Shown: piece by piece, positions 2-9,543 of the stretch
Position numbering within the stretch: position 1 is the first letter of the stretch
Layout: each line of letters begins with the position of its first letter
Notes under the pieces: generated by a model
What the model was told of the DNA's origin: nothing
The model's input: the letters and a program-made list of their open reading frames with translations, nothing else
Database searches by the model: none
Program-made: the position numbers and the translations under genes
IMG/VR virus record: IMGVR_UViG_3300028377_000005
Span: 1 to 64,000 of that record
Reading direction: 5' to 3' (one strand)
Source of the DNA: a virus
DNA: 64,000 bases

Positions 2-67
2 GTACTCCGTGTGGTAAACTACATCAAGGATCCTACGGGTAGCGGTATATCAAAGCATTACCAATGA
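2..67 (+). CDS. 3' end of an upstream gene (partial, ...VLRVVNYIKDPTGSGISKHYQ*)
   Basis: Frame is open from the window edge; its TGA (65-67) overlaps the ATG at 64 (ATGA coupling). Confidence 0.55.
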   Translation, partial: VLRVVNYIKDPTGSGISKHYQ

Positions 68-732
68 ATTTTGACTTCGAACATATCGGTCCCGGTGATC
101 ACATTTGCGTAGTTGCAGAAGCCAGCAATACCGATGCCGTGGGCCTTCACCTGCGGCATCTTGGTTTCGAGATTCGTGATGTTATCACGATCTTGATGCC
201 GGGCCTTGAGCGGATGGCTATCCTTGCACGCCAGTCCAGTAATCATACCATCGCTGACATAATGGTTCGGTATGGGGCTGGGTCGGTTAACATCGACGCC
301 TGCCGGATCTCGACAATGGATTCGTTAGACGGCGGAGATACTACGCGGGGTAAACGTAGTGCCTTGTATGGGGATCGTCCTTACATGCACGATGAGGAGC
401 ATCTTGACCACCGGCGCAAGGAGGCCGTAGGGAAAGTTGCAAGGGCAGAAAAGCTAGGGAGGTTCCCCGCTAACCTTTTGGTGATCCACGGACCTGACTG
501 TTCACTTGCCGGTATCCGCGAGGTGAAGACCCGAACGGACACACGCCCTGACGTAGACGCTGGACGGTCCAGCAAAGTGCAGTGGCGTTACACTCCTACG
601 TCGGAAACAAAACGCGGCTATGGTGGTGCTGACGGCGTGGAAAAGGTTCCTGAGTGGAACTGTCAAAGCAATTGTCCTGTGTATCTGTTGGATTCCCATC
701 CTTTTGGAGGCTGCACATGTCTATCCCCATAA
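64..732 (+). CDS. DNA methyltransferase-derived target-recognition module 1 (no DPPY, no FxGxG; C-terminus truncated)
   Basis: GFEIRD, GAGSVNIDACRI, GRFPAN and HGPDC...WNCQSNCPV motifs match the central part of phage beta-class N6/N4 MTases; paralog of 5479 and 6312. Confidence 0.8.
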   Translation: MNFDFEHIGPGDHICVVAEASNTDAVGLHLRHLGFEIRDVITILMPGLERMAILARQSSNHTIADIMVRYGAGSVNIDACRISTMDSLDGGDTTRGKRSALYGDRPYMHDEEHLDHRRKEAVGKVARAEKLGRFPANLLVIHGPDCSLAGIREVKTRTDTRPDVDAGRSSKVQWRYTPTSETKRGYGGADGVEKVPEWNCQSNCPVYLLDSHPFGGCTCLSP

Positions 733-994
733 AGAAGGTGGGGACGACTCTACTCGCATAGGGAATATGCTCTTACTGAGTAGGAACGTCCATAGGCTTT
801 TCGACAACGGGAAGATTTCTATTTGTCCCCGCACATACGAGGTTCATGTGTCCGAGGACGTGGCGGACCGTCCACTAAGGTCGGGTGTTCCCTGTAGTAC
901 CCTTCAAGGAAAAGTTGCCGAGGTTGAACATGTCGATCAAAGCTCTTTGGAGTACCATTGGCGCAAGTTTCAGGAACAAAAGGAAAAGGTATGA
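695..994 (+). CDS. HNH endonuclease domain (HNH_2-like) with no clear start of its own, overlapping the end of the MTase module in the +1 frame
   Basis: LLEAAHVYPHKEGGDD...NMLLLSRNVHRLFDNGKISI...SLEYHW; track ORF is 620..994 but similarity starts at about 701. Confidence 0.75.
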   Translation, partial: PILLEAAHVYPHKEGGDDSTRIGNMLLLSRNVHRLFDNGKISICPRTYEVHVSEDVADRPLRSGVPCSTLQGKVAEVEHVDQSSLEYHWRKFQEQKEKV

Positions 995-1578
995 GCGATC
1001 TAGTACGTGTTATCAGCTATCGTGAACCTGTGCCCGAAGGGTACGAGGAAATCGTCACCACCTCCCGGTCAAAGAACTGGACGAAGGGTTTGAGTCCTTT
1101 CGTGTGTGGTCCGGTCGACCTGTACGATGGTTACGTGGCAAAGAACGTCGAGAACGGGTGGCAATTCAGTAAGGTCTACATGGAGCACATCGGCGACGAT
1201 GGGTGCCCCAACGATCTGTATTTCGAATGGGCTAAAGAGGGGTGGGCCGATAACTATGCTCACCGGTATCCGATGGGAAAAGGAGCCAAGCCAGAATTCT
1301 CTTGGTGGGATGGTGAGCGACTTACCTACGTAGAGGCACGCAAGAAAATCTACATGCGTATCTATTCGCAAGGCTTGCGAGATACCTACGCTTTCAAGCG
1401 TCTAGTGTCGATGGTGCAGTCGGGATCGAAGGTTGCGCTCCGGGACTTTGACGGGTACGATCACAAGGCCGAAGGCTTGACTTACAATGAGGTCGTGAAC
1501 AATCCCGACCGCAAAATGGGCCACGCTTTCGTGATCGCAATGTTGCTGGACAAGATTTTGGAGGCTAACGATGCTTGA
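991..1578 (+). CDS. NADAR-like (DUF6939-type) protein
   Basis: VTTSRSKNWTKGLSPF, NVENGWQFSKVY, LTYVEARKKIY and GHAFV motifs; ATG 991 has an RBS and ATGA overlap. Confidence 0.55.
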   Translation: MSDLVRVISYREPVPEGYEEIVTTSRSKNWTKGLSPFVCGPVDLYDGYVAKNVENGWQFSKVYMEHIGDDGCPNDLYFEWAKEGWADNYAHRYPMGKGAKPEFSWWDGERLTYVEARKKIYMRIYSQGLRDTYAFKRLVSMVQSGSKVALRDFDGYDHKAEGLTYNEVVNNPDRKMGHAFVIAMLLDKILEANDA

Positions 1579-1858
1579 AGAGCTTGACTGTAAACCGCTA
1601 TCTCATGAGGACTTTGCTGAGATACTAGAACAGAAATACCACGAGGGTATCCGGGCGGTACAGATGCACCGCAACGACTATGCCTGTATCCGGGGAAAGG
1701 AGTTAGACCTTTGCCTCGATGGTGATCAGATACGTAAGGGCATCATGGGTACTATTCGGGATGTAACACTTCTTGTATTGCGTGATTCCAGTTTGCCGGA
1801 AGGTATGGTAGATTACCTTGATCAAGTGGCTTATCAACGATTTATGAATGCTAATTAA
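1571..1858 (+). CDS. hypothetical protein
   Basis: Coupled ORF in the operon, GGAGG RBS. Confidence 0.7.
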   Translation: MLEELDCKPLSHEDFAEILEQKYHEGIRAVQMHRNDYACIRGKELDLCLDGDQIRKGIMGTIRDVTLLVLRDSSLPEGMVDYLDQVAYQRFMNAN

Positions 1859-2078
1859 CCACTTCAACGCACTGACTTTACTGCCACCAGATCACCGAAC
1901 AGCTAAGAGGATTTCGGTCCAGAAATCAATCACTCCGCGTTCACGTTACGAACCGGGTCGTGTCCTTGTCCTTGTGAACGGCTATACAGAATACGGCTTT
2001 CATTGTAATTTACGTTCCCCGTTTTTGACCTTTAGCGAATTCGACCGCTTGATGAAAGGCGATCGGTTTAACCAATAA
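1848..2078 (+). CDS. hypothetical protein, probable paralog of 4375..4683
   Basis: Fills the gap before the topoisomerase gene; N-terminus MLINHFN..LLPPDH. Confidence 0.55.
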   Translation: MLINHFNALTLLPPDHRTAKRISVQKSITPRSRYEPGRVLVLVNGYTEYGFHCNLRSPFLTFSEFDRLMKGDRFNQ

Positions 2079-2087
2079 GAGACTTCA

Positions 2088-4373
2088 ATGGCGCATTTGC
2101 ACGAAGAAATACGAACACGTTACTTGAACTACGCCATGTCCGTTATCATGAGCCGGGCTATCCCGGACGTGCGTGACGGTCTGAAACCTGTGCAGCGTAG
2201 GATTCTCTACGCCATGTATAAGAACCTCCGCCTTACCCCGAGCGCACGGTTTAGAAAGTCCGCTGCGATCGTCGGTGAGGTGATGGGTAAGTACCATCCC
2301 CACGGTGACTCTGCTATTTATGGGGCAATGGTTCGTATGGCACAGGACTTTTCGCTCCGCTACCCTCTGGTAGACGGACACGGCAACTTCGGTTCGATCG
2401 ACGGGGACAATGCGGCTGCCATGCGGTACACGGAGGCTAAACTCCTCCCCCTTGCCGAGCGTTTGCTCGATGAGTTGGGTGACGGAACGGTGGGTTACCG
2501 ACCCAATTACGACGGCACCGTGGAAGAACCCGACGTCCTACCCGCTCAGATCCCCAACCTCCTAGTCAATGGGGCCACGGGTATTGCGGTCGGAATGGCA
2601 ACCAACATCCCGCCTCACAACCTGAAAGAGTGTATCGACGCCTGTTGTGACTTGATCTCTAACCCGTCACGCAAGGTATCGACACTGGTCAAGAACCACA
2701 TCAAGGGGCCGGATTTCCCGACTGGCGGAGTGATCTTGGAGAGCCAAGATGAAATCGCTGAGTCTTACGAAACGGGTTCTGGTACGTTTACAATCCGGGC
2801 GCGGTGGCACCTCGAAAAGGTGAGCGCCAATGGGAAACAAGCTATTGTGGTGACGGAGATTCCGTACAGCACGAACAAAGATACGCTTGTCCAAAAGATC
2901 GCCGAGCACGTGGCGAACAATAAGGTGCCTCAGATTACCGACGTGCGTGACGAAAGCACCGATGAGATTCGGGTCGTCATGGACTTGAAACGCGGGTCCG
3001 ATGAGAACGCGGCCTTGGCTTATCTGTTCAAGCATACGCCATTGGAAGATCGTTTCCACTTGAACATGACGTGCCTCTTACCCTCTGACGACCTCAGCGT
3101 GCCGAAGCCGGATCAGGTAGACTTGAAGACGGTCTTGCAGGCGTTCCTAGACTTCCGTCTGGACGTCACGACCAAGCGGTTGCAAAACAAGCTCGACGGC
3201 CTTGAGTCACGCATCCATATCCTCGAAGCCTTTGAAGTGGTTTTCGGGGATATCCAAAAGGTGCTCAAAATCGTCCAGAAAGCCACGTCCAAAAAGGAAG
3301 CCCGCAAAGGTGTGATGAAAGGCTTTGGGTTCGATGAGGAACAAGCTGAGGCGATCATTTCGATCCCCCTATACCGACTTGCCAATACCGAGAAGGAAGG
3401 CGTCCTGAATGAACTGAAGGCCAAACGCGGGGAAGCCGAGCGTCTCCGTGAAGTCCTCAGCGACGAGGAGGCAAGGTGGTCGCTGGTTCGCACTGAGCTT
3501 AGGGAGATTGGCCGGGCTTATGGGGACGATCGACGTACATCGGTAGAGGTGGAAGTCGAAGATTACGAGTACAACGAAGAGGACTTCATCGAAGCCGAAG
3601 ACCTGTATGTCGTAGTGTCCCGTGACGGTTGGGTGCGCACACAAAAGAGCTACGGCGACCTGTCGAGTTTGCGGTGCCGAGATAACGATGAGATTGGGTG
3701 GGTACTTCCGGGCAACACAAAGGATACCGTCCTGTTCTTTACTTCGGCGGCCAAGTGTTATACGGCGCGCATCGTTGATCTCACCCTGACGACGGGGTAC
3801 GGCGACCCTATCCAGTCCATGTTTTCATTCGGGGACGGCGAAAAGATCGTGAACGTACTCACTCTGAGCGACCTTGTGGTGCCCGGCTCTCCAGACCCTG
3901 CAGATATCGAAATGGTGTCCGTCGCTAAGAGCGGGTTGGCCGTGCGATACAACCTCGATGGTTTTGATGAGCCTTCGACTGTCGTGGGCCGCACTTTCCA
4001 GCGCCTAGAGGATGGGGATAGCGTAGTCAATTGCTGTTACCGTCAAGACGGCGATCACGTCGTGCTCGCCACACACAACGGTAGAGGCACTACGTTCGAA
4101 GCCACCGAGGTCAAGAGTTACAAGGGTCCGGGGAAAGGCGTGAAGTCTATCAACATTCAAGATGGGGATCTGGTACTGGCCTTTACCCTTTGTGGGGATA
4201 ACCAGTCTGAAAACCTGTACGTCGAAACGAACCGGGGTGCGGAGCGGATGGTCACTCACCAGACGTACAAGCCCACCAAGCGTGGTAACAAAGGTTACAC
4301 GATCATCAAGCGCGGCCATTTGATTCGGTGGAAGCGCCAGCCTGTAGAAATCAACTATCCCGGAGACGAATGA
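2088..4373 (+). CDS. gyrA: type IIA DNA topoisomerase subunit A (GyrA/ParC family)
   Basis: [34 protein letters not shown], catalytic [23 protein letters not shown]-terminal pinwheel repeats; no GyrA-box seen, so it may be ParC-like. Confidence 0.95.
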
Positions 4374-4374
4374 T

Positions 4375-4683
4375 ATGATTGTTAATCATTCCAACACGAG
4401 TGGCTTGCCCTTAGATCATTTCCTCGACACCAGTTTGGCTGTGGACAACATGGTCTTTAGGATCATGTATCAAGTTGAGTCTACGGGTGATGTGGTAATC
4501 GCAGCCGACAATCCTCGCACGACAGCATCGGTTTCGTTGTGGGTGACATGCAGTATGAAATCAGTGTTTTTCAGGTGCGTGATAACATGTCCCCATGTCT
4601 GGATGATTTTTCAAAACAGCGCCGGAACGGCGACGTTTAGCGGAATTACTCACGAACGGAACGCTGTTGGACGAATTACGTAA
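4375..4683 (+). CDS. hypothetical protein, probable paralog of 1848..2078
   Basis: Operon position; N-terminus MIVNHSN..GLPLDH. Confidence 0.55.
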   Translation: MIVNHSNTSGLPLDHFLDTSLAVDNMVFRIMYQVESTGDVVIAADNPRTTASVSLWVTCSMKSVFFRCVITCPHVWMIFQNSAGTATFSGITHERNAVGRIT

Positions 4684-4694
4684 AAGGGCAACGA

Positions 4695-4988
4695 ATGACT
4701 GATCAATTAGATGAAGAGGGGTTGCTCGACGTTGAATGTGGGGCAGCTATCGAAGAGGCGCTGGAAAACGACAACCCCCTATTACAGCGGGCTTTGCGTC
4801 GTATCCGTGCCCTTGAGGGTGGTGTGAGGTATGCTGACGAGCGCGTGAACAGTTTGATCACAGAACTTAGCCGCATCCGGGATGTTGTTTTTCCACCGGG
4901 CAGTGGTATCCCTACCGGGGATGCCTTGTACTTGGCGATCAAGGAGACCTTCGAAGCTAAGACCCCGCCCGAAGAGGCCGAAGAATGA
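4695..4988 (+). CDS. hypothetical coiled-coil protein
   Basis: ORF with RBS, coupled to the next gene. Confidence 0.7.
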   Translation: MTDQLDEEGLLDVECGAAIEEALENDNPLLQRALRRIRALEGGVRYADERVNSLITELSRIRDVVFPPGSGIPTGDALYLAIKETFEAKTPPEEAEE

Positions 4989-5248
4989 TCCGCCCTGAAG
5001 AAGTGCTAGACCACAGGTTTTTAGTGTGGGAAACGACCATTGATGGTATTCTTCGCAGCCACGAATGGAGCCAATCCCGAACGTGTCCCGTACAGATCGG
5101 AACCCAACAGCCGGGACTAGATAAGTTGCTAGACGAATACCGTCGTATCGGTTGGATTGTTCATGCGGTCCAGAACGATCGCGGTACCCTTTGTCGGTTC
5201 ATGCCTGCAGAGTTACTGGAAACGGACGATTTCGATGAGCAAGCGTGA
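4985..5248 (+). CDS. hypothetical protein
   Basis: ATGA-coupled ORF. Confidence 0.7.
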   Translation: MIRPEEVLDHRFLVWETTIDGILRSHEWSQSRTCPVQIGTQQPGLDKLLDEYRRIGWIVHAVQNDRGTLCRFMPAELLETDDFDEQA

Positions 5249-5489
5249 TCAAATAGCGGCCCGCTATCCAGAGGTCCTTTTCGCTGACGGTTTCGATGAT
5301 GCAATCGTAGGAGTGGCTTACAAAGGCGGACAAGGCATTTCTGTAGCTTATGATACGACATCGTGCATTTTGATTTTGATGGACGACATGACTGAAATGG
5401 AAGCTGTAGAGTATTTCGAATACAATGTGTTGGACGCTTTCGTAGGTGAGGCTACACCCGTATTTATCATGGAACCCGATGAGATTTGA
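5235..5489 (+). CDS. conserved small phage protein
   Basis: LFADGFDDAIVGV...EAVEYFEYNVLDAFVGEATPVF, a motif I recognise from many phage hypothetical proteins. Confidence 0.75.
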   Translation: MSKRDQIAARYPEVLFADGFDDAIVGVAYKGGQGISVAYDTTSCILILMDDMTEMEAVEYFEYNVLDAFVGEATPVFIMEPDEI

Positions 5490-6315
5490 TCTAAAACCCG
5501 GCGAACACGCAGTTTTCGTGAGCGAGGCTGCAACCGTGGATGGTGCGGCTTTCCGTATACGTAAAGAGGGGCTAGAGATCCGGGACGCCGTGGCTATCCA
5601 GATGGTAGATCAATCGTTGGTGGCGATCCTTGTGCGTGCCGAGCTTAACGGTTCGATCGTTGAGAATACGGTACGGACCGGTGCGGGTACGATCAATATC
5701 GATGCGTGCCGTGTGTCGGTAGAGTCCAGTGAAGTCGTGGATCAAAGCTCCGGTGACTGGACGGTAGGTAACGCCCACGAAGGGTACAAAAGGCCGGGAC
5801 GTTCCATGTTTACGCACAGTCCGAAGGAGCGCAATGGCCCTGCTAACCCCGCTGGCCGTTGGCCGCCGAATCAGATCCTAGTCCACGGTCCCGACTGTGT
5901 GTGCAATGGTACTAAAAAAGTGCATCCCAAAGAGGGGCATCGTCCTAATCCGGTACAGCAACAAGCAGACGGGCGTATTCAGTTTAATACGAAAGAGCCG
6001 GGTTACCAGAAGATCAGCTACACTGCCGAAGACGGCAAAGAAACAGTAGCCGATTGGGATTGCCAGCCGGGATGCCCTGTGGTGGCCTTGGATCAACAAA
6101 GTGGTGACAGACCGGGCTGCACAAGTCCGTCTGACGCCCAACCCGAAAGTATTTTCAGGCCGGGGCAGGGTGGGTATCAGAAACAAGGTCCTATTTACGG
6201 TGACAAGGGCGGTGCATCGAGGTTCTATCGCCAGACTCAAAGCATAGACGACCTGATCTGGTACCTTGCGGATCTTGTGGGGTCGGTGGATCGTGTGGTG
6301 TGGGTGGACGCATGA
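5479..6315 (+). CDS. DNA methyltransferase-derived target-recognition module 2 (no DPPY, no FxGxG)
   Basis: LKPGEH, GLEIRD, GAGTINIDACRV, GRWPPN, HGPDC...WDCQPGCPV, LDQQSG, GDKGGASRFY. Confidence 0.85.
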   Translation: MRFDLKPGEHAVFVSEAATVDGAAFRIRKEGLEIRDAVAIQMVDQSLVAILVRAELNGSIVENTVRTGAGTINIDACRVSVESSEVVDQSSGDWTVGNAHEGYKRPGRSMFTHSPKERNGPANPAGRWPPNQILVHGPDCVCNGTKKVHPKEGHRPNPVQQQADGRIQFNTKEPGYQKISYTAEDGKETVADWDCQPGCPVVALDQQSGDRPGCTSPSDAQPESIFRPGQGGYQKQGPIYGDKGGASRFYRQTQSIDDLIWYLADLVGSVDRVVWVDA

Positions 6316-7163
6316 AAAACTGGCCTACTTTACAACCCGGTGAGTACGTGACGGTCTTGACTACCGAAACACAAGCGGACGCCGTAGGCTTTCGTGCCCT
6401 CCGTGCGGGCTTGGAAGTGCGGGACGTCGTGACGGCTCAGTTGCCGGGTGGTCAGGTGCAAGTGGCTCTCCTCTTGCGTCAAGACCCGGAGTCCTCAGTC
6501 GTAGAACGCATCGTGCGTTCGGGAACGGGCGCTGTAGACATTGATGGGAGCCGTGTGGCCTATGCGTCCGATAGCGACGAGGATAACGCTAGGGTGCCGC
6601 AGCCTGCTTTCGATTCACCAACCGGAAAAGTCTACAATTACAAAACAGGTGAAGGACGTTCCGGTGATATGTTTGATCCATCAAATGGGCGGTGGCCTGC
6701 CAATTTCATTTTCGTACATGCTTCGCAGTGTGAACGTAGAGGCACCAAAAAGGTTACGAACACTTCGGGGTCTGTAACAGGCAACGAACCCAGCGCCCTG
6801 ACTAAAAACGCCTATGGCGAATACAAGGGTCGCCCTAAATTCCAAGCCTACGGTGACGACGGTACCGAAGAGGTAGATGATTGGAACTGCCAACCCGACT
6901 GCCCCGTAGCCCTTGTCGATGCCCAGAGCGGCTACCTGAAAAGCCCTGCTCCCTATGTTAAAGCGACGTCTACCTACAATCGGGTCGCATTCGGTAAAGG
7001 CATTGGACAGGCGGCTGGCGAGGTCGTCAAGGGCTTTGGCGACGATGGCGGTGCGTCAAGGTTCTTTAAGCATGTAACTTCCCTTGACGAATTGGCCGAT
7101 TACCTGCACACTTTGATACGTAACGAATATGTATTGCACGACGAGGAAAAAACACATGAGTGA
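6312..7163 (+). CDS. DNA methyltransferase-derived target-recognition module 3 (no DPPY, no FxGxG)
   Basis: LQPGEY, GLEVRD, GTGAVDIDGSRV, GRWPAN, HASQC...WNCQPDCPV, DAQSG, GDDGGASRFF. Confidence 0.85.
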   Translation: MKNWPTLQPGEYVTVLTTETQADAVGFRALRAGLEVRDVVTAQLPGGQVQVALLLRQDPESSVVERIVRSGTGAVDIDGSRVAYASDSDEDNARVPQPAFDSPTGKVYNYKTGEGRSGDMFDPSNGRWPANFIFVHASQCERRGTKKVTNTSGSVTGNEPSALTKNAYGEYKGRPKFQAYGDDGTEEVDDWNCQPDCPVALVDAQSGYLKSPAPYVKATSTYNRVAFGKGIGQAAGEVVKGFGDDGGASRFFKHVTSLDELADYLHTLIRNEYVLHDEEKTHE

Positions 7164-7665
7164 TAACCCTTATGAAGCGCCCTTTCTGTATACAGCAAAG
7201 GCGTCCCGATCCGAGCGTGATGCCGGTTGTGAGCATCTTTTCTGGAAATACGAGGGTTCCGATCCCGTCCAGATCACAAAGGAAGAATACGATGAACTCG
7301 AAGCCGCTGGAGAACGGGTGGCCGAGGGTAACATTCATCCCACGGTCAAGCCGGTCGAGGTGATGGAGTGGTTGGTCAATAGGCTCTGTCCCGAAGACGG
7401 CGTGGTACTGGACCCTTTCACGGGTTCGGGAACAACAGGTATCGCGGCAATCAAAGCCGGGCGTGATGCCCAGCTTATTGAGCTTAATGCGGACGGCTCT
7501 TACGCTCCGATTATCCGGGGCCGCCTTGAAGCTGCCAAGTATACCCATATCGAAGAGGTTCCGGTCTGGGAAGCGAAGCCTGAGATCACGGTACCTACCG
7601 ATGTGGATGAAACGCCGCAAGCGGAAGATGACCAAGAAGTCAATTTCGGCGACCTTTTTGGGTAA
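7156..7665 (+). CDS. stand-alone C-terminal SAM-binding module of a beta-class N6/N4 DNA methyltransferase
   Basis: FLYTAKASRSER...HPTVKPVEVMEWLV (motif X), VLDPFTGSGTTGIAA (motif I), LIELN (motif II); no DPPY. Confidence 0.9.
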   Translation: MSDNPYEAPFLYTAKASRSERDAGCEHLFWKYEGSDPVQITKEEYDELEAAGERVAEGNIHPTVKPVEVMEWLVNRLCPEDGVVLDPFTGSGTTGIAAIKAGRDAQLIELNADGSYAPIIRGRLEAAKYTHIEEVPVWEAKPEITVPTDVDETPQAEDDQEVNFGDLFG

Positions 7666-7666
7666 A

Positions 7667-7695
7667 TAATCTATTTGTGGCCCGCGTTAAATAGA
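7667..7695 (+). promoter_or_regulatory. putative phage late promoter (TAATCTATTTGT-N13-TAGA)
   Basis: Instance of the recurrent intergenic motif (see findings). Confidence 0.55.
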
Positions 7696-7711
7696 CACAT
7701 AGAGGGATCAG

Positions 7712-8152
7712 ATGCAATTTACTGCACCCAAATTCAGTACCGAAGTTAAGACCTTCCGGGACGCAAGTGACGTCCTCATGTCCCTGCTACATGCTCAAAA
7801 CCAGACGTACAACACCTGTATCATGCCGAGTTTCCATCACGGAAATGACATGGTTGAGGCGGTGATCAAGATGCTGGACACCGTAGAAAGTCCCGATGGC
7901 CTCGATCATATAGTGGTTCTAGCTCATAGCACTGTTTACTACCGTATCCGTAAAGAATGCCGTTCCGTGCTGGAAATGGAAAACCACGATCCCCGTGTAG
8001 GGTATTCAGGTACCCTCCTTGGTCATCGGTTTTTTGCACACCCCCGTCTTCGCCGAAACACGATTGTCGTCGGAGGTAAAAAGGGTAAAGCGGTACGGTT
8101 CATTGTAGGTGCTGAAACAGACTGGAACCCCAACCAGCCACTGGTGGTGTGA
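7712..8152 (+). CDS. hypothetical protein, possibly a divergent major-capsid-protein (HK97 A-domain) fragment
   Basis: IVVLAHSTVYYRIRK...LEME...GYSGTLLGHRFFAHPRLRRNTIVVG resembles capsid C-terminal regions; ORF is solid, function is tentative. Confidence 0.4.
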   Translation: MQFTAPKFSTEVKTFRDASDVLMSLLHAQNQTYNTCIMPSFHHGNDMVEAVIKMLDTVESPDGLDHIVVLAHSTVYYRIRKECRSVLEMENHDPRVGYSGTLLGHRFFAHPRLRRNTIVVGGKKGKAVRFIVGAETDWNPNQPLVV

Positions 8153-8718
8153 ACATGGACATTCATCCGTCACAAAACAGAGGGTGGATCGAAGTCGTTA
8201 CGGGAACTATGTTTGGCGGCAAGTCCACTGAACTCCTGAGACGCATGGAGCGCGCCCTTATTGCGCACCAAGATGTTATCGCTTTCAGTAAAGACACCCG
8301 TTTCGAAAAGGGTGCGATCACAACCCACAGCGAACACTCCCTAACTGGTCATTACGTCGAGACGGCCCAAGATATCGACCGCATCTTGTCGGACAACGCG
8401 ACCATCCAAGTCATCGGCATCGACGAAATACAGTTTTTCGACCAAGACCTTGTGGACGTTTGTCGTGATTGGGCATTGGCGGGCAAACGGATCATCTGTG
8501 CCGGGTTGGACCAAGATTACCACGGTGAACCTTTCGAAACGACGTTAGGTTTGATTGCCGAAGCCGAGTACGTCGACAAGTTTTTGGCCATTTGCACCAA
8601 ATGTGGCAACCCTGCCGTGCGCAATCACCTTAAGATAACCAGTGATTCACGTATCGTGGAGGGGGCGGGTGATCTTTACGAGGCCCTGTGCCGCAACTGT
8701 TTCGCAGCTATCAGCTAA
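8149..8718 (+). CDS. tdk: thymidine kinase
   Basis: GTMFGGKSTELL, IGIDEIQFF, AGLDQDY.GEPF, Zn site CTKC...YEALCRNC. Confidence 0.95.
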   Translation: MNMDIHPSQNRGWIEVVTGTMFGGKSTELLRRMERALIAHQDVIAFSKDTRFEKGAITTHSEHSLTGHYVETAQDIDRILSDNATIQVIGIDEIQFFDQDLVDVCRDWALAGKRIICAGLDQDYHGEPFETTLGLIAEAEYVDKFLAICTKCGNPAVRNHLKITSDSRIVEGAGDLYEALCRNCFAAIS

Positions 8719-8729
8719 TGGAGTCAAAC

Positions 8730-8999
8730 ATGCCGAAAAGCAAGGAAATGAACAAGTACCGGGTTTCATTACCACTCAAGGTGGGGAAATACGTCGCTTG
8801 TGTATCCCCGGAAGCAGCGGTTCAGGCATGTTTTCCCGACGCTGAAATCGAAGAGCATTCGAAAGGTCCGAGGTGGGTTCGTTACAAGACCTCCGAAGAG
8901 TTGCCAAAAGGGTGGCCAAAGAAAACCGAAGGTGGCGGTGGCGGAACGATCATCGACCTTGAAGAAATCGGCAACGTATTGGTGGTATTCGATGAGTGA
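8730..8999 (+). CDS. hypothetical protein
   Basis: GGAG RBS before ATG 8730; coupled to the next gene. Confidence 0.65.
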   Translation: MPKSKEMNKYRVSLPLKVGKYVACVSPEAAVQACFPDAEIEEHSKGPRWVRYKTSEELPKGWPKKTEGGGGGTIIDLEEIGNVLVVFDE

Positions 9000-9543
9000 C
9001 CTGAGCACCAAAGAGCTGCGACGCAAGATGCTGGAGGCGTTGCGTCACGAACCGGAAGCGTTTGATTTAGCTTTGGATGATGAAGGGTTCGTTACGGTAG
9101 CGGACTTTGTATATGGGTTCGGTATTACCCAGCCTGTAGACGCCGATGAGGACGCCGTGCGTGATGTTCTAGGCCCCGATGGTGGTGCCTATTTCGATTG
9201 CGACGGGGATCGTTTCAGGGCCGTTACAGGACACACTACCGAAGATTTCGATTACCCTGCAGGACAGCCTACCTTTTACCTGTACTATTTGATCGACGAA
9301 AAAGACCTTTCTCATACTAAAGAGCACGGCTTGGTGGCGGTCAAGCAGCGGTACCTGCGCTTAGAACGGTCGCCCGAGGATGCAATTGCTTCCAAGGGTC
9401 GTCGGCGCATCAAAAAACCTGTGATTGCTACGATCGACATCGAAGCGTATGCACAGGGAGTTGCCTTTTATCATTATTGCGGGGCTTGGTATTGCGAAAG
9501 CGTGCCTCCCCATCTCATTAAATATGGACCAAGACATGCGTAA
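8992..9543 (+). CDS. kptA: RNA 2'-phosphotransferase (Tpt1/KptA)-like protein with degenerate motifs
   Basis: ALRHEPEAFDLALDDEGFV, RFRAVTGHT, GL....R, PVIATID...GVAFY....WY...VPP; HGT and HLS motifs are replaced. Confidence 0.8.
   Translation: MSDLSTKELRRKMLEALRHEPEAFDLALDDEGFVTVADFVYGFGITQPVDADEDAVRDVLGPDGGAYFDCDGDRFRAVTGHTTEDFDYPAGQPTFYLYYLIDEKDLSHTKEHGLVAVKQRYLRLERSPEDAIASKGRRRIKKPVIATIDIEAYAQGVAFYHYCGAWYCESVPPHLIKYGPRHA

Follow-up and report, generated by a model that had tools for sequence, protein, structure and literature searches.

Beta-class methyltransferase dimers, among them CcrM, EcoP15I Mod and METTL3–METTL14, pair two subunits, and to our knowledge no amino-methyltransferase works without a (D/N/S)PP(Y/F/W) loop (motif IV). 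In METTL14/METTL3 and MTA9/MTA1, one paralogue has an eroded motif IV but retains the fold and probably contributes to substrate binding, and a division of labour between subunits has been described for the CcrM and EcoP15I Mod dimers (PMC7544214). Target recognition is multiplied in the Bacillus phage C5 methyltransferases (SPR, phi3T and rho11s), which join several target-recognising modules to one catalytic core, and is carried by a separate, exchangeable, non-catalytic specificity protein, HsdS, in Type I restriction–modification systems. We found no description of split or modular phage amino-methylases in the literature searched. Here, we examine a locus in the first 64 kb (hereafter, the window) of the 115,647-bp IMG/VR virus record IMGVR_UViG_3300028377_000005, assigned to a large lake phage. 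Three of its genes (mod1, mod2 and mod3) encode catalytically dead, selected methylase derivatives that carry the sequence-recognising segment (the reader), and a fourth (sam) encodes a conserved S-adenosylmethionine (SAM)-binding half. We tentatively read the region as an incomplete kit of parts for a beta-class DNA amino-methyltransferase that is divided among several subunits, a type common in large phages. The features concerned are:

64–732, plus strand: mod1, a truncated dead module with motifs V and VI, NIDxCR, GRFPAN, H-x3-C and C-x3-CPV (from an alignment of the three modules)
5479–6315, plus strand: mod2, a complete dead module with the strands of motifs V and VI, a remnant of motif VIII, the Zn-ribbon reader insert, helix X′ and a short strand β1′
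5884–5898, plus strand: H-G-P-D-C in mod2, the first two ligands of an invariant H..C...C..C site (presumed to bind Zn)
6312–7163, plus strand: mod3, a complete dead module, translationally coupled to mod2 and sam
7156–7665, plus strand: sam, a stand-alone SAM-binding half with strand PFLYTAKASRSER, helix X, motifs I and II–III and an acidic linker
7336–7353, plus strand: helix X of sam (HPTVKP)
7411–7437, plus strand: motif I of sam (DPFTGSGTT)
7642–7662, plus strand: C-terminal tail of sam (NFGDLFG)

The closest described relatives are single-chain phage beta-class methylases (PF01555, phrog_67/3008/498; for example, P0008 and P0023), which share motifs V and VI and the Zn-ribbon segment with the modules, and helix X and motifs I–III with sam. 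In the window, that chain is split into genes: the modules lack motif IV, the GSGFPKS and W.GWGT.LKP loops, motif I and motifs II–III, and the DPPY-bearing part is absent from the record. The similarity of the modules is confined to the middle of a single clade of N6/N4 phage enzymes of this class (E = 1e-25 to 1e-31 to single-chain members), and they are 29–38% identical to one another, with 42 invariant alignment columns. LxPGxH, G(L/F)E(I/V)RD, NIDxCR, GR(W/F)P.N, H-x3-C and W.C-x3-CPV are common to all three, and mod2 and mod3 additionally hold QSG, GGASRF and a terminal L..YL..L helix; the modules end after this eroded helix X′, and the SAM-binding motif I is absent from all of them. Four residues, H136, C140, C195 and C199, were invariant across 79 sequences. 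A first-pass annotation of the window, made from its letters alone, had likewise described three paralogues that correspond only to a methylase middle with these motifs, and its open reading frames (ORFs) with their starts and the codon strings that it quoted (at 5884 and 5698) were all recovered in the sequence. Two of its descriptions changed: the three paralogues are not equal, as mod2 and mod3 are intact and the similarity of mod1 ends at ~693, at a deletion junction; and the ‘decayed motif X’ that closes the modules is no local decay, as the L..YL..L helix and short strand are a conserved feature of a large family.

That family lies outside the domain libraries searched. Neither the modules themselves nor proteins of their type are covered by a Pfam, NCBIfam or PADLOC model, the sole PHROG signal was a weak match of mod2 to phrog_3008, and a sequence profile of the modules matched no PDB chain, so that no solved structure holds this middle segment by sequence. 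A hidden Markov model (HMM) of the modules recovered mod2 and mod3 at E = 1e-95 to 1e-101 and mod1 over profile positions 14–214 only (hmmsearch), and HMM searches of the 115.6-kb record yielded no further copy of a module or of sam. A HMMER scan with mod2 returned 4,700 proteins at E ≤ 1e-3, and the best 150 clusters (50% identity) were typed for architecture by motif and HMM. Most (92 of the 150) had at most 340 amino acids (median 268) and lacked both motif IV and motif I; of these, 72 span motifs V–VI through X′, as mod2 and mod3 do. A further 26 were canonical enzymes in the order IV–V–VI...reader...X–I, and 24 were chains without motif IV but with motif I (21 of them longer than 340 amino acids), many permuted into the order reader, X′, pseudo-IV, V–VI, FY.(A/P)KAS, X, I (for example, P0016 and P0028); the remaining 8 fell into two small classes (motif IV without I, or neither motif at >340 amino acids). 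The ESM Atlas neighbours of mod2 were ‘hypothetical’ or unnamed clusters that were 90–100% viral.

The sam product matched PF01555 at profile positions 136–213 of 221 only (E = 2e-16; 60.9 bits, cut-off 26.7), and consists of FLYTAKAS plus X, I, II and III, with no dead V–VI domain. Its 11 orthologues (163–177 amino acids, 42–64% identity) all have the same start point, just before PF.Y.AKASRSERD.GCEHL, and end in an acidic linker and a tail that is mostly (V/I)(S/G)F.DLFG; HPTVKP and DPFTGSGTT are invariant throughout the 12-member group. No close orthologue was found in IMG/VR. A search for related loci with a single protein of the region as query returned nothing. The first-pass annotation had given this gene its own ribosome-binding site and intact HPTVKP and DPFTGSGTT motifs, both of which hold (GAGGAA lies 8 nt before the ATG), and had cast it as a shared catalytic core, which it is not: it is the SAM-binding half only, and 115.6 kb of record contain no DPPY half. 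The tail is conserved in the orthologues, and the SAM proteins of permuted and three-part systems have the consensus SLxDLFG. It resembles, in sequence, the end of T4 gp43 (SLDFLFG, within EKASLDFLFG), which binds the gp45 clamp (PMC6212786), and such a clamp-like tail could hold the methylase at the replisome. No gp45-type clamp (PF02916, PF09116) was found in the 115.6-kb fragment.

The start codon of mod2 overlaps the stop codon of the preceding gene, that of mod3 shares an ATGA with the end of mod2 (with GGTGGA upstream) and that of sam lies inside mod3, the two genes overlapping by 8 nt. From these start/stop overlaps and the arrangement of Shine–Dalgarno (SD) sequences and ATGs, the genes from mod2 to sam are coupled in translation. 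We rejected a programmed frameshift between mod3 and sam: the latter has an SD and ATG of its own and a start point common to all 12 orthologues, and a fused product would contain the RFF/PFLY strand and helix X twice. Synonymous sites were saturated in every pair compared (proportion of synonymous differences, pS, 0.72–0.90), even for GyrA at 77% identity, so that the dN/dS ratio that the first-pass annotation had proposed as a check could not be computed; what was obtained instead is a low proportion of non-synonymous differences (pN) against saturated pS, with pN of 0.28 for sam versus L153 and 0.35 for mod1 versus its L081 orthologue, similar to neighbouring genes. Because protein identity to relatives is nevertheless 50–59%, the modules and sam are, on this comparative evidence, under selection, in agreement with the argument already made for selection rather than decay. 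In addition, mod2, mod3 and sam are identical in contigs of independent lake samples, with the contigs of one (X4) identical across 5014–8113.

The state of mod1 differs. Its resemblance to its paralogues ends at ..CPVYLLD (~693), and it lacks the QSG...GGASRF...X′ end, whereas its orthologue in L081 (3141–4007, 43% identity) has a full C terminus. Two features mark the break:

692–698, no strand: deletion junction with 7-nt microhomology
677–994, plus strand: remnant of an HNH_2 endonuclease domain (PF13391), in the +1 frame relative to mod1 and with no N-terminal part

As a result of the deletion, the 5′ portion of mod1 is followed, in a different frame, by the 3′ portion of an HNH_2 gene, the domain of which is still matched at profile positions 3–65 of 66 (PF13391, E = 2.1e-10). 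One contig (X2) matches the window at 1–698 and again at 692–8200, with 1,373 extra letters between the two matches, an X4 contig spans 377–1068 exactly as the window does and an X5 contig breaks at 696. With ~1,373 extra nucleotides in one sample and an uninterrupted junction like that of the window in another, the window form is a real deletion variant of 1.37 kb that is polymorphic in the lake population. A fusion of a module to an HNH nuclease was considered and rejected, because the junction is a deletion and neither the ~500 homologues nor the loci contain such a fusion.

Split systems were found in many IMG/VR and JGI contigs as overlapping, out-of-frame ORFs of three kinds, namely DPPY halves (190–260 amino acids, from motif IV (DPPYG) via GSGFPKS to W.GWGTALKP..EP); reader modules (~200 amino acids, from the strand before NIDxCR to after GGASRFF); and one SAM gene (X′ (..YF..MITPP), pseudo-IV, V, VI, FY.SKAS.SER, X, I–III and an SL.DLFG tail). 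One locus (L013), for example, holds four DPPY halves, three modules and one SAM gene, with similar sets in L011, L024, L109, L113 and L152, and two- or three-part systems were seen in L013, L019, L028, L062, L089, L106, L121 and L152, among others. Such operons (for example, L013, L019 and L028) belong to the same clade as the window's genes and likewise offer alternative parts alongside one SAM gene with the same clamp-like tail, but the cut points differ. Three-part readers lack V–VI and X′, and their SAM gene carries a dead Rossmann domain, whereas every window module has a dead scaffold of its own (V–VI–VIII remnant N-terminally, X′ and β1′ C-terminally) and sam is the live half only. The closest syntenic relative, L153 (GyrA 77% identity), has at the position of sam a DPPY N-half (IV–V–VI up to WLYG) and a truncated Hint domain followed by sam, and carries a frameshifted module that overlaps a DPPY half next to thyA.

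In phage methylases, the intein (Hint) seen in L153:12719–13267 and in homologues P0391–P0406 sits right after W(L/V)YG and before SGFPKS, and homologues such as P0394 have whole mini-inteins at the same site. Several short ORFs on 41–78-kb contigs stop after intein block B and are candidate split-intein N-fragments. No Hint domain was found in the window's genes, so the split-intein ‘fractured gene’ arrangement is not a feature of this locus.

Structure models are consistent with a methylase-derived scaffold. The AlphaFold2 (AF2) model of mod2 (predicted local distance difference test (pLDDT) 77, predicted template-modelling score 0.72) was confident at both termini (>90) and in the conserved core of the insert, with disordered variable loops. 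A Foldseek search of this model against the PDB returned nothing at E ≤ 0.001, and its top 19 VIA matches were all beta-class or MT-A70 methylases, with modest scores (Z 3.1–6.5, ~100–119 aligned residues) and with structures of the METTL14/MTA9 type among them. METTL14 and MTA9, however, keep a full Rossmann domain and have been shown to heterodimerise, whereas the scaffold in the window is reduced to four strands and its pairing is putative. By its matches to known structures, the AF2 model of the permuted chain P0016 (pLDDT 71) falls into two separate units: residues 211–324 resemble whole Rossmann domains, and residues 324–459 resemble the SAM-binding half alone of CcrM, RsrI and BceJIV. 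We read this model as a dead domain in cis with a live half that would need strands IV–VIII from another chain, and on this reading mod3 and sam would hold the same parts as P0016 in two polypeptides.

The explanation that we consider best, although we hold it at somewhat less than an even chance, is that the modules are dead, reader-bearing protomers that serve a split live protomer made of sam and an unseen DPPY half. It draws on the homology and motif losses, the structural matches of mod2, the coupling, conservation and selection of the genes, the split systems in other contigs, the parts of P0016, the arrangement in L153, the modules of this build next to a methylase gene in L120, L056 and L079, and two complete huge-phage genomes in which dead forms coexist with catalytic PF01555 genes far away. 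In this view, mod2 and mod3 (and mod1 before its truncation) each retain three methylase-sheet strands together with helix X′ and a β1 stub, which would fold as a small scaffold, and the clade-specific Zn-ribbon insert, with variable loops on a conserved core. Such a module could neither bind SAM nor flip or methylate a base. The product of sam would be the SAM half of a reader-less live protomer, with its clamp-binding-like tail. In the mechanism that we infer, a DPPY-bearing half (motifs IV–VIII) would complete it; a dead module would then pair with the live protomer as the subunits of beta-class dimers do and supply sequence recognition, so that several modules would yield several methylated motifs on replicating phage DNA. 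A bolder version, which we regard as possible but doubtful, is that the modules (250–300 amino acids) form a large family of free reader pseudo-methyltransferases confined to phages. They would join whichever reader-less beta-class protomer is available, of phage or host origin, and impose or alter its target sequence, as an HsdS-like plug-in that arose inside the type II beta-class fold, with the live protomer tethered to the clamp. HsdS itself has no homology to the modules and is not derived from a methylase fold, and the Bacillus phage enzymes, which share the idea of one core with several recognition modules, are of the C5 class and hold all of their target-recognition domains (TRDs) in one chain, whereas the window's modules are separate proteins. 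Several canonical chains in the family with 2–5 tandem GRWP–CPV–GGASRF units (P0122, P0125 and L052) are an amino-methylase analogue of those multi-TRD enzymes and fit a modular reader. On their own account, single chains of 870–1,160 amino acids with 3–5 tandem Zn-ribbon units (P0122, P0125, L052:6323–9304 and L046:1111–3723) are candidate multispecific amino-methylases.

Of the plug-in methylase proposed by the first-pass annotation, what stands is that stripped, TRD-bearing derivatives are under selection and that systems built from parts exist; what does not is the core, given that the gene at 7156 is a SAM half and its DPPY partner was not recovered. The search that the annotation had suggested, for a DPPY-only ORF and more paralogues in the rest of the genome, found neither in 115.6 kb by HMM or regular expression. 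If the parts do work together, large phages have turned a one-chain methylase into a kit with a live core and exchangeable dead readers, a handful of genes could shield a phage genome from many restriction systems (the anti-restriction role being one that we only infer) and the modules would offer a natural scaffold for programmable methylation. The window also adds a new cut pattern to the split methylase systems and, as a kit that lacks its catalytic half, is a natural test case.

Several observations weigh against this explanation. No ORF of at least 50 amino acids in the whole record has [DNS]PP[YFWA] in a methylase context, two HMMs of the N-terminal (motif-IV) half had 0 matches there, and the record held no other PF01555 gene and no Dam-type or C5 methylase. 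Because the record is a genome fragment (CheckV completeness ~25%), these absences apply to the fragment rather than to the genome, and the DPPY half is either in the unsampled part or lost. A module has its own X′ and β1′ cap and so may not need sam; the two modules of L081 are intact and stand alone, with no sam in 16.7 kb; the live protomer of L153 may be broken too, as its N-half ends in the truncated Hint domain; and mod1 is being lost in part of the lake population. Finally, when only modules flanked by at least 5 kb on each side were counted, a methylase part (any DPPY, SAM or canonical gene of the locus) accompanied 40 of 46 reader-only modules and just 1 of 7 of the window's build (Fisher P = 2.5 × 10−4), the other 6 having none within 7–8 kb.

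These last counts speak for a different explanation, to which we assign a lower but real probability: that the modules are autonomous pseudo-methyltransferases, non-catalytic, sequence-reading DNA binders that shield sites, regulate genes or poison a dimeric host methylase as dominant-negative partners, with sam adjacent by chance and belonging to a different, reader-less split methylase. The DNA-binder alternative already raised in the first-pass annotation thus remains a reading of the locus. It would suit the prevalence of short clusters without motifs IV and I, with most of them spanning V–VI to X′, and their nearly exclusive viral, ‘hypothetical’ membership. It would also suit the reader-domain tree, in which the window's build falls into a few mostly pure clades (16 changes versus 42 ± 2 with shuffled labels) and mod2 and mod3 share a clade of 16 (support 97), as well as the modules of L081 and the pairing of sam with a DPPY N-half, not a module, in L153. 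Against it, about one-third of modules of this build abut or overlap a methylase gene once less well-flanked cases are counted (the window, L153, L120, L056 and L079), mod3 overlaps sam with an SD–ATG arrangement, and DNA binding by the insert is putative in every member. Even on this alternative, a family that is large, virus-restricted and uncovered by the searched libraries would be a new class of phage protein.

We think it improbable that mod3 and sam (or any module and sam) form a SAM-binding, DNA-reading complex that works without motif IV, whether as a SAM-dependent binder, a SAM sink or an unconventional methylase. Relatives that combine these parts in one chain but lack DPPY make up 21 of the 150 clusters, with HG.I..G.PT as a conserved replacement motif, and a full-length fused form with both motifs eroded exists in L008, but the chains without motif IV nearly always have a separate DPPY gene in the locus (L006, L007, L050, L098, L146 and L152), and the (D/N/S)PP(Y/F/W) loop is established as needed by known amino-methyltransferases. 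The L008 protein (6878–7939, in a 529-kb phage record) has TYTGS in place of DPPY and DPYCGLGD in place of DPFxGSG, and looks like a complete pseudo-methylase. Least probable of all is that the genes are pseudogene remnants of tandem full-length methylases, which clearly applies only to mod1, cut and fused out of frame to the HNH remnant, and which could also appeal to the frameshifted module and intein-broken N-half of L153 and to the missing catalytic half, but which is largely refuted for mod2, mod3 and sam by their intactness and identity across independent lake samples, by protein identities maintained over saturated synonymous sites and by dozens of diverged homologues of the same length with invariant H/C/C/C, GR.P and GGASRF and conserved starts and ends.

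The window DNA was also present in several lake-water and salt-lake metagenomes, and an identical sam occurs in ENA/Logan contigs, one of them 142.5 kb long. A blastn search against a phage collection gave 0 matches, no RNA dataset with this sequence was listed among the sequencing runs, and a promoter and terminator scan gave counts no higher than in shuffled sequence. Modules of the window's build were found directly next to a methylase gene in L120, L056 and L079, and in the window, L081 and L153 the methylase parts move around a common GyrA...TK...Tpt1 backbone, TK being thymidine kinase. The neighbouring genes are:

2088–4373: GyrA/ParC-like topoisomerase subunit
8149–8718: thymidine kinase
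8800–9543: Tpt1/KptA RNA 2′-phosphotransferase (PF01885)
958–1578: DUF6939 protein
5157–5489, plus strand: small conserved gene upstream of mod2 (from blastp homologues)

The product of this last gene carries an ADGFDDAI...EYFEYNV motif and has no Pfam match; by blastp it is 51% identical to L081 2477–3145 and 42% identical to a protein of L032. Its homologue precedes a module in L081 too, and in L032 it sits ~1 kb upstream of a canonical methylase.

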